Source: Candidatus Pelearchaeum maunauluense (GTDB lineage Archaea; Thermoproteota; Nitrososphaeria_A; Caldarchaeales; Caldarchaeaceae). Taken from it: 64,000 nucleotides of DNA. The stretch is taken from assembly GCA_030059675.1 (NCBI GenBank), contig JANVYQ010000001.1, forward strand, positions 96,001 to 160,000, in the 5' to 3' direction. The notes beneath the pieces are model-generated. The model did no database searches. It saw only the letters and a program-made list of their open reading frames with translations, and was not told where the DNA came from. Both the position numbers and the translations under genes were made by a program. Positions 18,373 to 21,467 of the stretch are shown here, in pieces; the first letter of the stretch is position 1, and the number at the start of each line of letters is the position of its first letter.

Positions 18373-18966
18373 TTGGTTTGGAGGAGGGCTGTCGTAAAGA
18401 TAGAAGGGGATGTTCAGCGTGTTGGGTATCGCTATATAGTTGCGACGCTTGCTAGACGCTTCTCCGTAAGTGGGTTAGTCAGAAATCTTGATGACGGCAG
18501 CGTTGAGGTCATTGCGGAAGGCGAGGAAGAGAACTTAAACGCGTTCATACAGAGTATAAAGATTAACGAGCCGCCCATAATAGTTGAGTCGCTGAACGTT
18601 AGGTATGAAAAGCCTACTAGGGAGTTTAGGACATTCAGGATAGTTACGGGGAGTCTTGAGGAGGAGATGGTGGAGGGCTTCGGGATAGGAGCAGGCTATC
18701 TACGCTTAGTCCTAGACCTACAACGGGAAATTCTAGGCTTACAGCATGAAAACATAAAGCTGCAGAAGGGGATGCTTAACGAGGTTAGCGAGTTTAGAAA
18801 AGACCTGCGAGTGCTTATTGATGAGCGTATAAGCCGTGTTGAGGATGATGTGTGGAAAATAAAGGCTAAGCTGGTTATTGACCAGCCTGCCTACGCTCCT
18901 CCCTTCTCTAGTTGGGCTTCTCGCCTCCCTCTCCTTCCTGCTGTAGGTCTTCAGGCGCTGGCTTGA
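18373..18966 (+). CDS. Acylphosphatase domain with C-terminal coiled coil
   Basis: GDVQRVGYR, GLVRNLDDGSVEV. Confidence 0.85.
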   Translation: MVWRRAVVKIEGDVQRVGYRYIVATLARRFSVSGLVRNLDDGSVEVIAEGEEENLNAFIQSIKINEPPIIVESLNVRYEKPTREFRTFRIVTGSLEEEMVEGFGIGAGYLRLVLDLQREILGLQHENIKLQKGMLNEVSEFRKDLRVLIDERISRVEDDVWKIKAKLVIDQPAYAPPFSSWASRLPLLPAVGLQALA

Positions 18967-20287
18967 CTATCACCTTATTATTCTTCAGCTCTACTACCAC
19001 CATGTCGCCTTCTTTCAAGCCCAGCATGTTGGCGAATTCGCTGGGTATCGTTACCCGCCTGCCTGAGAGCATTCTTTGTAGGCGTTTATGCGAGTTTAGG
19101 CGCTGGCCTTCTTCCTGTGGGTGTTGTGGTGTTTCTGTCGGAGCTGCCTGCTGGGGCTGTGGAGGCGGCGGAGGTGGTGGCGTCGCCTGGCTTGGCTGAG
19201 CCGCCTGCTGCGCTGCGCGCTTCTCGCGCCGCCTCTTCAGCAGGTAGGTCGCCGAGGTGAACGCGGCAAGCCCTATCAAGCCAGCCGCCTGGCCGTAGGC
19301 GATATTCTTGGTGAGGATATTCTCCTGGCTGAGCGAGTTATAGCTGAGCAGGAGCGACTCATACGCCTTCTTAGACTCGTCAAGCTGGTTCTTGAGCTGG
19401 CCAATCTCCCTGAGAGAGTCTTCATGCCTCTTGCTTAGGTTGGTATAGACCTCGCGGAGCTGCTGGTAGGAGGCTTGCAAGCTGTTATACTCGTCTGTGA
19501 GCTGCCTATAATCCGCGAGCAACTGCTCATAGTTCTGGGCTAGGACGCTATTCCTCTGGCGGAGGTCGTCGTATCTCTCCTGGAGCTGGCGGAGGCCTTC
19601 CAGCGCCTGCTTATACTGGGCGTCTAGCTGTTTATACTCCTCCGTGAGCGCATCGTAGCTGGCTTTCAGGCTGTTATACTCGTTTTCGCTCGCGGCCAAG
19701 TCTCCCCTGAGCCTGTTAATCTCAGCGTTGAGCGCTTCAATCCTAGCATTTAGCGCGTCTATCTTAGCCCGCAGGGAGTTTATCGTGGCTTCAAGCTGGT
19801 CTATCAGCCTTTTAGCGCTATTCAGCTCGCCCACAACCTCGTCGTAGGTCTTCTCACGCGCCACAGCCAAGAACCACCTGTAGGTGAGCGGCTTAGCAAC
19901 AGTGTCGCGCGTGTAGTTGGCGAAGAGCTCAGCGGATACGCTGGGGTCAGCGCGCACAACACTTGGGACGCAGAGGGTATAGCTCTTCTGAACAAACCAG
20001 CCTGCCATGACGTTGATGTCAGACGCCAGCGTGTCATCCAGCAATGTTTGGGTGTATGAGTTCGCCTGATACTTCACGACTAGGCGTATCTTGTCTATGT
20101 AGATGTCTCCCAGAGCCGTTGCGTCAAATATGAGCTGGAAGCAAGCGCCTATCTTTACCTCAGGCGGGTATGTGAGTGTGAATTTTATGCTCGCGTCGTC
20201 CACCACTAGGGAGAATGCTTGCGCAGCGGTGTTTGGGAGGAGCGCCAGGGCTAGCAGCACCAGCATTACCCCTACCTTCTTCATCAT
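18908..20287 (-). CDS. Single-pass membrane protein: signal peptide, beta-rich domain, long coiled coil, TM, Pro/Gln linker, C-terminal AbrB/MazE-like domain
   Basis: MMKKVGVMLVLLALALLPNTAAQA; heptads; TM followed by KRRREKR; RVTIPSEFANMLGLKEGDMVVV. Confidence 0.75.
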   Translation of the reverse strand: MMKKVGVMLVLLALALLPNTAAQAFSLVVDDASIKFTLTYPPEVKIGACFQLIFDATALGDIYIDKIRLVVKYQANSYTQTLLDDTLASDINVMAGWFVQKSYTLCVPSVVRADPSVSAELFANYTRDTVAKPLTYRWFLAVAREKTYDEVVGELNSAKRLIDQLEATINSLRAKIDALNARIEALNAEINRLRGDLAASENEYNSLKASYDALTEEYKQLDAQYKQALEGLRQLQERYDDLRQRNSVLAQNYEQLLADYRQLTDEYNSLQASYQQLREVYTNLSKRHEDSLREIGQLKNQLDESKKAYESLLLSYNSLSQENILTKNIAYGQAAGLIGLAAFTSATYLLKRRREKRAAQQAAQPSQATPPPPPPPQPQQAAPTETPQHPQEEGQRLNSHKRLQRMLSGRRVTIPSEFANMLGLKEGDMVVVELKNNKVIVKPAPEDLQQEGEGGEKPN

Positions 20288-20364
20288 CTCTAGGTAAGAC
20301 CTGCGTATCGCATTTAAGGCTTTTAGACGCGCTTTAACATAGCGGATGGCGGTGTTAGGGTTGA

Positions 20365-20414
20365 TGATATCACATGACGCTACGCGACATCACATAGTGC
20401 CGCGTGATGCCATA
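20365..20414. repeat. Degenerate 10-bp tandem array TGATATCACA/TGACGCTACG/CGACATCACA/TAGTGCCGCG/TGATGCCATA
   Basis: Read directly in the divergent intergenic region; the same unit recurs in gene 21000-21467. Confidence 0.7.
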
Positions 20415-20602
20415 ACCCGTTATCCCCGCCTATCTTCGCCTCGCGGCAGCTGGAAAATCTTTCAAAACAGCACCTCCGCTACGCAGGTATTTCCAACAAG
20501 AATAACTAGAGCTAACAACGGTATTACATACCCGCATGAATTTCCTTCGCTTCATAGCCAGCCGTTTACAGAACTGTATTCCATGGAGGCGGCGGGGCTG
20601 AG

Positions 20603-21013
20603 ATGAAACCAATCGCTGAAAGAATCGCCGAATTGCGGGCTAATTTGCGGAAAGACCCAGTTTTCAAGCTTCTCCGCTCCAACTCAAACCTCACGGCCAA
20701 GCAGGTTGAGACGCTGCTGTTTGATGTGGTGGTGGAGCAGTATGGGGCGAGGCTAACCGCTCAGGAGAGAGCAGCCCTGCGGGGCGTTTCCAAGGGCGCT
20801 TTCGTCAGGACTAAGAAGCAGGCGGAGCGGAATATTACTAGGGCACTGTTTACGGTTATGCTCGCGTCTTATCTTGGTATTCTACGCCTGCCAAGCTATC
20901 GCTGGCTTCTGGAAATAGGTGAGCTCCTACAGGAAGGGGATGCTGAGAGCCTCAAGCGCGCTGTGCAGGCGTTGAGCGAAAACCTGGCGGGGCGGGAAGA
21001 TGGCGGAGATTGA
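20603..21013 (+). CDS. Hypothetical protein with HTH-like segment
   Basis: LTAKQVETL..RAALRGVSKGAFVRTKKQA resembles a sigma-region-4/HTH; overlaps the next gene. Confidence 0.65.
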   Translation: MKPIAERIAELRANLRKDPVFKLLRSNSNLTAKQVETLLFDVVVEQYGARLTAQERAALRGVSKGAFVRTKKQAERNITRALFTVMLASYLGILRLPSYRWLLEIGELLQEGDAESLKRAVQALSENLAGREDGGD

Positions 21014-21467
21014 GACGCTGGTCTTTGCAGCGCTATTCCTGGCGCAGACCCTGATTTACGTGATTCTCCTCAGGAGAGTAATGACATCACGCGGCATCAC
21101 GGCTGAGACGCGCGAAGCCTTGGAGAAGCTACGCAGGATTGAGGAGACGCTGGGCAGGCTACAGCGGCCAGCCAGCATGCCTGTCCCACCGCCTCCACCA
21201 CCGCCACCGCCGCCTGAGGAGCCAGCCCTCCCAGACTCGGCGATAGAGGCACTAAAGCTCCTCCGCGACTCAGGGCCTATGACGTCAACTGATGTCAGCC
21301 GCGCACTTGGCCGTAGTAGGGAGCACGTCTCGCGCGTGATGAAGGCTCTTTACACCCGTGGCCTAGTCTCGCGGAGTGGGAAGCCGTTTAGGTATGAGCT
21401 TACCCCTAGGGGCGCTGAAGTCCTTGACATCACAGGACATCACGGTAGGCAGAGCCGCGTAAAGTAG
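21000..21467 (+). CDS. Membrane-anchored winged-helix (MarR-like) DNA-binding protein
   Basis: N-terminal TM, short coiled coil, poly-Pro, then GPMTSTDVSRALGRSREHVSRVMKALYTRGLV..YELTPRG. Confidence 0.82.
   Translation: MAEIETLVFAALFLAQTLIYVILLRRVMTSRGITAETREALEKLRRIEETLGRLQRPASMPVPPPPPPPPPPEEPALPDSAIEALKLLRDSGPMTSTDVSRALGRSREHVSRVMKALYTRGLVSRSGKPFRYELTPRGAEVLDITGHHGRQSRVK
21082..21444 (+). repeat. Three intragenic 10-bp tandem pairs: 21082-21101, 21280-21299, 21425-21444
   Basis: TGACATCACG-CGGCATCACG; TGACGTCAAC-TGATGTCAGC; TGACATCACA-GGACATCACG. Confidence 0.75.

Follow-up and report, generated by a model that had tools for sequence, protein, structure and literature searches.

Two overlapping genes and a cluster of 10-bp dyads: a candidate membrane anchor of the origin region in Caldarchaeales and related archaea

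The window analysed here, a 64,000-nt stretch of contig JANVYQ010000001.1 (positions 96,001 to 160,000), belongs to the 1.79-Mb genome of Candidatus Pelearchaeum maunauluense (Caldarchaeales), referred to below as G000. It contains two plus-strand genes, p136 and p155, which overlap by 14 nt and are accompanied by short boxes composed of the half-sites GTGAY and RTCAC (Table 1). An earlier note, made from this sequence without database searches, had described the downstream gene as encoding a transmembrane (TM) helix, a coiled coil, a poly-Pro segment and a winged helix, coupled to an upstream helix-turn-helix (HTH)-like gene, and had proposed that its product binds phased sites in its own locus in order to anchor or segregate the chromosome. 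The two genes are adjacent in all 26 orthologous loci in which both could be located, and the architecture is borne out by profile matches and structure models.

The AlphaFold2 (AF2) model of p155, with a predicted local distance difference test score (pLDDT) of 87.3, comprises helix 2-30, helix 33-55, an unstructured poly-Pro segment (56-78), a winged HTH (wHTH) domain (79-134) and a C-terminal helix. Residues 6-24 reach a mean (peak) hydropathy of 2.37, and the predicted TM helix carries a polar residue, Q16, that is conserved in the orthologue alignment. The C-terminal domain is of the TrmB/MarR wHTH type: it scores above the curated Pfam thresholds for PF01978 TrmB (33.7 bits, cut-off 25.6; 3.3e-8), HTH_27 (31.7 bits, cut-off 22.2) and MarR (30.7 bits, cut-off 24.6), and is modelled at a pLDDT of 97-98 as three helices (79-91, 96-103 and 107-119) with a beta-hairpin wing (123-126 and 131-134). 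The protein does not belong to the MarR family proper, as the position of the dimerisation helices is taken by the TM helix, coil and Pro-rich linker and no NCBIfam MarR model reached its cut-off; nor does it belong to ParB/Spo0J, with TIGR00180 parB_part scoring 13.3 bits against a cut-off of 58.45 and the ParB Pfam domain absent. In the recognition helix, residues S106, R107, E108, H109, R112 and K115 are invariant or almost so among orthologues, which fits a box motif conserved across the phylum. Neither the alignment nor the AF2 model contains an extracytoplasmic sensor domain, and this feature, together with the polar residue in the TM helix and the long coil of distant homologues, would suit a tether better than a signal-sensing regulator.

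The partner protein p136 has no family in NCBIfam or in Pfam (E up to 1, where one irrelevant match of 12.6 bits appeared), the sigma-70 region 4 and Tfx test profiles PF04545 and PF14601 gave no match, and its own profile returned 0 matches among PDB sequences at E up to 1. Its AF2 model (pLDDT 84.7) has seven helices, for which the weak Foldseek matches, spanning ~60 residues, are SigD region 4 and one archaeal transcription factor (E ~0.5, probability 0.96-0.98), and its structure rows in the Atlas are Tfx-like clusters with TM-scores of 0.44-0.52. The likeness lies in the helical HTH core shared with Tfx and sigma-70 region 4, to which p136 adds N- and C-terminal helices. A structure prediction for the complex of p136 and p155 scored 0.00 in both runs and is uninformative either way, and a scan for sigma-70 promoters and terminators, which is inapplicable to an archaeon, gave 0 sites. 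Among the sequencing runs listed, none is of RNA, and two DNA runs from a single study account for small shares (0.12 and 0.09). Homologues in ammonia-oxidising archaea (AOA) are publicly annotated only as "winged helix DNA-binding protein", "MarR family transcriptional regulator" or "predicted transcriptional regulator", and relatives of p136 fall into Bathyarchaeota and Nitrososphaerota clusters named "hypothetical protein". Among the papers listed in literature searches none deals with the pair, and those listed for GTGATATCAC are unrelated, as judged from their titles.

Table 1. Genes and sequence elements at the p136/p155 locus (window coordinates)
Feature	Position	Strand	Description
p136 gene	20603..21013	+	136-aa all-helical protein; Tfx/sigma-70-region-4-like HTH at ~residues 50-90
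p155 gene	21000..21467	+	N-terminal TM helix, coil, poly-Pro linker, wHTH, C-terminal helix
Upstream box group	20364..20408		Divergent intergenic region; 9-of-10 palindrome ATGATATCAC (20364-20373), CGACATCAC (20385-20393), GTGAT (20404-20408)
Box A, TTTACAGAACTGTATTCC	20563..20581	+	TACA-N4-TGTA dyad, 22-40 nt upstream of the p136 start
Single GTGAT half-box	21060..21064		In the TM-coding part of p155
Juxtamembrane double box, ATGACATCAC GCGGCATCAC GG	21081..21102		Same 10-bp register as GTGAC..GTGATGTCAC of orthologues
Degenerate double box, TGACGTCAAC TGATGTCA	21280..21297		Start of the wHTH domain; aligns with conserved GTGATatcaaGTGATgtcagc of orthologues
GTGAT	21336..21340		Within recognition-helix codons (RVMK)
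C-terminal double box, TTGACATCAC AGGACATCAC GG	21424..21445		Encodes DITGHHG; kept in the same-genus relative

The octamer GACATCAC has 4 copies in the window, all within 20386-21443, just as the earlier note had it; shuffled windows average 1.22 copies and hold at least 4 in 2 of 100 cases. Exact matches to TGAYRTCAC number 3 (at 20365, 21082 and 21425), and at least 3 were found in 10 of 100 shuffles. Three tandem pairs had been claimed inside p155. Those at 21082 and 21425 are clear, being identical at 18 of 21 positions (21082-21102 and 21425-21445) and 343 bp apart, therefore in different reading frames; the pair at 21280 is degenerate here, though it aligns with a well-kept GTGAT-N5-GTGAT in orthologues and its second unit reads GTGAT in the same-genus relative. 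The "5-unit array" described at 20365-20414 was overstated, since that region holds three RTCAC/GTGAY half-boxes (20369, 20389 and 20404) and Tandem Repeats Finder reports no 10-bp array at the locus, its only hit being the CCACCG repeat that encodes poly-Pro. The single half-box in the TM-coding part is weak because it has been lost (GTTAT) in the same-genus relative, the GTGAT among the recognition-helix codons may be codon-driven, and the C-terminal double box is genus-specific because other orthologues end differently.

Tests against chance within the G000 genome alone gave mixed results. Octamers with at least 4 copies in 1.1 kb are common (65 loci in the 1.79-Mb genome), and RTCAC-N5-RTCAC occurs 7 times, 2 of these in p155. 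The arrangement CATCAC-N4-CATCAC is found twice in 1.79 Mb, both times inside p155, in the juxtamembrane and C-terminal double boxes; no other locus in the genome has two occurrences of one hexamer pair spaced at 10 bp inside 400 bp, and the same test gives 0 loci at periods of 8, 9, 11 and 13 and two at a period of 12. The doubt about chance is removed by the comparative data over orthologous loci. A possible second copy of the locus on contig C17, where TGACATCAC recurs at a spacing of 717 bp, was dismissed as coincidence, since BLAST shows no paralogue of the locus, p136 or p155 in the genome.

Hexamer enrichment in the operon region relative to its flanks was determined over 23 non-redundant orthologous loci, and densities and spacings were counted over 26 loci including three near-duplicates. 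The unbiased ranking is led by ATCACA (67 observed, 6.2 expected), CATCAC (94 observed, 13.9 expected), ATCACG and ACGTCA. The same repeats do recur at orthologous loci, a check that the earlier note had proposed. The density of RTCAC is 7-17 per kb between -700 and +400 of the p155 start and ~1-3 per kb in most bins of the flanks; the spacing of same-strand boxes peaks at 10 bp (40 cases), followed by 8 bp (13) and 13 bp (10). The complete unit is a dyad of 10 bp, GTGAYRTCAC. Boxes recur just upstream of the p136 promoter region, as GTGATG-N4-GTGATG, as a group inside p136, and as double boxes at the juxtamembrane codons and at the start of the wHTH domain of p155; in distant lineages they are found outside coding sequence, both upstream of p136 and in the gap that separates it from p155. 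Taken together, this recurrence supports the boxes as a conserved cis-element of the p136/p155 pair.

The earlier note took the repeats to dictate protein sequence. The box signal sits at the DNA, not the protein, level, as boxes are found in non-coding DNA, in the genes of two unrelated proteins and in different frames. In the juxtamembrane region differing half-sites are kept in the same 10-bp register across orthologues, which argues for selection on the DNA, and codon identity among pairs encoding the same residue shows a modest trend (0.55-0.56 in boxes versus 0.39-0.41 outside). Within-genus divergence is no lower in boxes (3/40 positions) than outside (73/825), a comparison that is uninformative at such distance. 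In three loci of genus g10 (L023, L024 and L025) the last p136 codons (CDIT or RDIT) are written by a GTGATATCAC palindrome, a parallel to the DITGHHG tail of p155; the boxes shape the C-termini of both proteins.

Box A is a dyad of another kind, T(A/T)TACA-N4-TGTAT(C/T)C, distinct from the GTGAY/RTCAC boxes and located 10-40 nt upstream of p136 in the loci compared. Its TACARAANTGTA sequence is present as a single copy in the G000 genome (window position 20567). A strict pattern recovers box A in 30 of 57 loci, and most of the remaining loci, some of them without p155, show variants with one mismatch. Box A is a candidate operator of p136 or the core promoter of the operon.

The occurrence of similar gene pairs in Nitrososphaeria, stated in the earlier note, and in Bathyarchaeia, where it suggested looking, is borne out. 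A p136 profile matches 68 of the 76 genomes of the class (42 of the 43 high-quality ones) and 154 of 401 sampled Thermoproteota genomes, with some families wholly or mostly positive (25/25, 14/17) and others negative (0/32, 0/23). p155 is present in 29 of 41 relatives, and a homologue was found in 21 of 34 further loci that were fetched, usually as a protein of 190-250 aa with a TM helix, a long coiled coil and a wHTH domain, encoded 200-700 bp downstream of p136. In these further loci the boxes and palindromes are mostly intergenic and upstream of p136, and their commonest spacings are 7, 10 and 11 bp.

The boxes follow p155. Over the 57 loci compared, each with a core of ~1.9 kb, the core contains a palindrome in 34 and a 10-bp tandem in 30 of the 44 loci with p155 (flanks: 2 and 2), and contains each in 1 of the 13 loci with p136 only (flanks: 1 and 1). 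The palindrome was seen in 9 of 13 families with p155. Since kin are not independent, these locus and family counts are descriptive and amount to no test. In the Caldarchaeales families f2 and f3 (genus g6), which have kept p136, full-length p155 was absent from all 5 genomes searched, where there were only weak wHTH matches in larger open reading frames (ORFs) or none. The comparison supports the view that the boxes are present with the membrane-anchored wHTH gene and missing where p136 alone remains. As a proposed reading, p136 and p155 would have become an overlapping operon in Caldarchaeales, with the sites now inside coding sequence.

Several individual loci depart from this arrangement. 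A gene for an XRE-type HTH and a CBS domain lies between the p136 and p155 homologues in L079 (2400-2993), L080, L082 and L026; the p155 homologues of L079, L080 and L082 have no N-terminal TM helix and these loci show no RTCAC enrichment, and that of L026 has kept the N-terminal hydrophobic helix, with RTCAC at 5.0 per kb in the core and 1.4 in the flanks. The p155 orthologue of L012 (G015:C110) contains one in-frame TAG, which could reflect a pseudogene, a sequencing error or recoding. In an f2 locus without p155, p136 is followed by a different ORF of 155 aa with a weak IclR-type HTH (L061:2330-2794), the N-terminal part of which resembles, by eye only, a 128-aa ORF of the AOA loci (L092:482-865).

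Within individual genomes the boxes are rare away from the locus. The share of genome-wide GTGAY-N5-GTGAY matches that falls inside the ~1-kb locus is 3/3 in G013, 3/8 in G003, 3/7 in G006, 2/7 in G008 and 1/7 in G020; full palindromes number 2-3 in each of these five genomes, one of them in the locus in every case, and in three distant families the locus holds 2/6, 2/3 and 3/4 of the palindromes. The two AOA genomes are the exception: only single ATCACA boxes are enriched at their loci (8.9-9.7 per kb versus 1.3-2.1 in the flanks). No other box cluster was found in the scanned genomes beyond isolated matches at about control level. These counts support a concentration of the boxes at one locus in each non-AOA genome scanned, and a cluster of sites at one chromosomal region, as in centromere-like systems, is therefore seen, with a weak signal in two AOA genomes.

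Archaeal origins are described as typically adjoining the gene of their initiator (PMC4010727), and the position of the pair was determined relative to orc1/cdc6 by locating the best Cdc6_C match in genomes with a p136 match on a large contig, the Caldarchaeales distances being worked out by hand. Nineteen genomes outside Caldarchaeales, drawn from 12 families, were examined: in 18 of them p136 and the best Cdc6_C match (confirmed as Cdc6 by Pfam in one case) are 1-10 kb apart, and in the nineteenth the two are on different contigs. In the 24 Caldarchaeales genomes with both on one contig the distance is 7-35 kb in 18 and 50-152 kb in the rest. Two AOA loci share the order p136, p155, small AbrB gene, 128-aa ORF, repeats resembling origin recognition boxes (ORB-like repeats) and cdc6, the repeats lying ~1 kb beyond the operon. 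The putative oriC of G000 (C2:267500-268070) is outside the window, in an AT-rich intergenic region upstream of cdc6-1, and contains an exact inverted pair of 15-mers (C2:267788 and 267971) that has no further copy in the genome when 0-1 mismatch is allowed; cumulative GC skew gave no usable origin signal on contig C2. The GTGAY/RTCAC boxes are not ORB elements, as they differ from the ORB-like repeats upstream of cdc6 in G000 and AOA, and no such repeats were found near the operon in G000. With origins marked by ORB-like repeats that are distinct from the boxes, the analogy with iteron initiators drawn in the earlier note is without support. The gene order supports a tight linkage of the locus to orc1/cdc6 in most lineages.

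The reading that we favour begins with the GTGAY/RTCAC boxes, 10-bp dyads often phased at ~10 bp, as the binding sites of p155. The protein would sit in the cytoplasmic membrane by its single N-terminal helix, probably with its N terminus out and its C terminus in, as suggested by the RR that follows the helix, and its coil and flexible Pro-rich linker would set off the DNA-binding domain. Several p155 molecules may lie side by side over ~1 kb of their own operon, and this array would repress it; p136, the co-translated HTH partner, most likely binds a separate dyad, box A, upstream of its own start. Since p155 appears to be an integral membrane protein lacking a sensor domain, it would keep the locus that it binds at the membrane, and as this locus is ancestrally beside oriC, the arrangement would amount to an origin-region anchor that also autoregulates. 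That p155 binds the boxes cooperatively, autoregulates and anchors the origin-linked locus to the membrane is in our estimate a real possibility, a little short of an even chance. We put forward somewhat more tentatively the wider proposition that p155, the boxes and p136 form an archaeal, centromere-like anchor of the origin region, in which a wHTH membrane protein fastens a unique cluster of sites beside oriC to the membrane.

A number of observations weigh against this reading. In G000 itself the locus lies ~152 kb from cdc6-1 and the putative oriC, and its RTCAC density of 9 per 1.2 kb is the joint top of the genome without being an outlier. In two AOA genomes the locus holds 0/7 and 0/4 of the palindromes, and in one AOA genome (G252) 1/41 of the short-spaced tandems. 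Homologues of p155 without a TM helix (families f10 and f17, with the inserted HTH-CBS gene) are encoded at loci with no box enrichment. Half-sites of five bases are too short to exclude further genomic targets, half-sites of 5 bp that directly adjoin each other would be an unusual target for a dimeric wHTH protein, and a plain autoregulatory loop explains most of the same data and would leave the same sequence signatures.

This last point leads to the main rival, a purely regulatory circuit, in which p155 would be a membrane-tethered repressor, or an anti-factor sequestering p136, and the boxes would be multiple operators giving steep autoregulation. The output of such a circuit would pass through p136 acting elsewhere or through proteolytic release of p155, and the linkage to the origin would reflect cell-cycle- or replication-coupled expression rather than mechanics. 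The boxes do overlap the p136 and p155 promoter regions and reach the p155 start codon in distant loci, an overlapping co-transcribed pair with a single-pass membrane partner recalls the operons of extracytoplasmic function (ECF) sigma factors and their anti-sigma factors, and box A is unique to the locus, as an autoregulator would predict. The persistence of p136 without p155 in f2 and f3, which indicates that p136 has a function of its own, likewise favours a circuit. A regulon, however, is not visible among the scanned genomes, given that matches elsewhere are isolated and at about control level; p155 has no domain with which to sense a signal; the many sites spread over ~1 kb, some of them in coding DNA, exceed the needs of a simple operator; and the circuit gives no reason for the linkage to orc1/cdc6 seen across 12 families. 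We regard a purely regulatory role as less likely than the favoured reading and as the strongest of the alternatives.

It is less probable again that the boxes and their binder modulate origin firing or the availability of the initiator, with a logic comparable to that of bacterial datA/DARS or SeqA-type membrane sequestration, a role distinct from segregation anchoring. The proximity of the locus to oriC/cdc6 in 18 of 19 distant genomes would agree with such a replication-control element, as would a clustered repeat array beside, yet distinct from, the ORB-like repeats; on the other hand, the Caldarchaeales locus has drifted 7-152 kb from cdc6 with its boxes retained, the boxes are unlike the ORB-like elements upstream of cdc6, and searches of Pfam (E up to 1) and NCBIfam (E up to 0.1) detected no domain related to Orc1/Cdc6 in either protein. 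Finally, binding of the boxes by some other, unlinked factor, or their origin as by-products of conserved peptides and codon usage, is very improbable: several boxes do fall at homologous codon positions (e.g., RRAVTNRDVT and SVISSDVS) and the within-genus divergence given above lends this some colour, but the motif turns up outside coding sequence, is shared by two unrelated genes, is read in more than one frame, vanishes where p155 is absent and is rare elsewhere in the genomes.

The closest archaeal analogue of the proposed anchor is SegAB of Sulfolobus, in which SegB contacts imperfect palindromes upstream of segA that are proposed to be centromere analogues and perhaps also regulatory, and which is described from Crenarchaea and some Euryarchaea (PMC5120986). 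As far as that account goes, the two systems have in common a pair of overlapping genes, a site-specific binder and palindromes upstream of their own operon. They differ in the partner, which is a ParA-type ATPase in the case of SegA and, in p136, a small HTH protein that matches no ATPase family in Pfam or NCBIfam and has an all-helical AF2 model, and in the binder, SegB being soluble and p155 membrane-anchored. Unlike SegAB, the p155 locus has many boxes, some in coding DNA, and is linked to orc1/cdc6. In function the closest analogue is the bacterial origin-membrane anchor RicO/ricS of Staphylococcus aureus, the RicO protein of which is unrelated to p155 and is described as using a C-terminal amphipathic helix; p155 has an integral N-terminal TM helix, boxes clustered in its own operon and a second HTH partner, and is archaeal. 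RacA/ram of Bacillus subtilis is another bacterial origin-membrane anchor unrelated to p155.

Short-repeat arrays at the promoter of a partition operon, bound cooperatively and serving as centromere and operator in one, are familiar from ParR/parC and from the omega protein with its WATCACW heptads (pSM19035). The ATCAC core of these heptads and the 7-bp spacings of distant p155 loci present a curious resemblance; ParR and omega, however, have a ribbon-helix-helix fold, are encoded on bacterial plasmids and act together with a motor ATPase, whereas p155 is a wHTH protein with no motor gene in its operon and belongs to a chromosomal core gene pair. ToxR and CadC resemble p155 in crossing the membrane once and in carrying a winged-helix DNA-binding domain by which they act on nearby promoters, but in them this domain is N-terminal and a periplasmic sensor is present, while p155 is arranged the other way round and has next to nothing outside the cytoplasm.

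The p136/p155 pair is a concrete candidate for a part in chromosome organisation and segregation in Nitrososphaeria and their relatives, including the globally abundant ammonia oxidisers. It offers two uncharacterised families that nearly all members of a carrier lineage possess, mostly in single copy, a defined 10-bp dyad motif, a locus beside oriC and natural "knock-out" lineages without p155 and boxes, as well as a case in which the presumed binding sites are embedded in, and shape, the coding sequence of their presumed binder. Should the anchor be real, it would be a physical realisation of the attachment site of the replicon model, common to Caldarchaeales, AOA, Bathyarchaeia-like lineages and other Thermoproteota, with the sites having moved into the coding sequence of the binder in Caldarchaeales. 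Should anchoring fail, the pair would still be a widespread origin-linked regulatory module that is annotated only as "winged helix DNA-binding protein" or "hypothetical".

Two further features of the G000 genome may be recorded. The divergent neighbour of the pair (window 18908-20287, minus strand) encodes a signal peptide, a long coiled coil, a TM helix, a poly-Pro segment and a C-terminal AbrB/SpoVT domain (Pfam MazE_antitoxin, 2.6e-9), and is thus a second membrane-anchored protein with a DNA-binding-type domain. AbrB was considered and rejected as a general part of the system, as it is represented by this neighbour in G000 and by the small ORFs after p155 in two AOA loci and is absent from all other fetched loci. 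On contig C8, at ~54-61 kb, many octamers are repeated at least 4 times in 1.1 kb in a pattern that resembles a CRISPR array.

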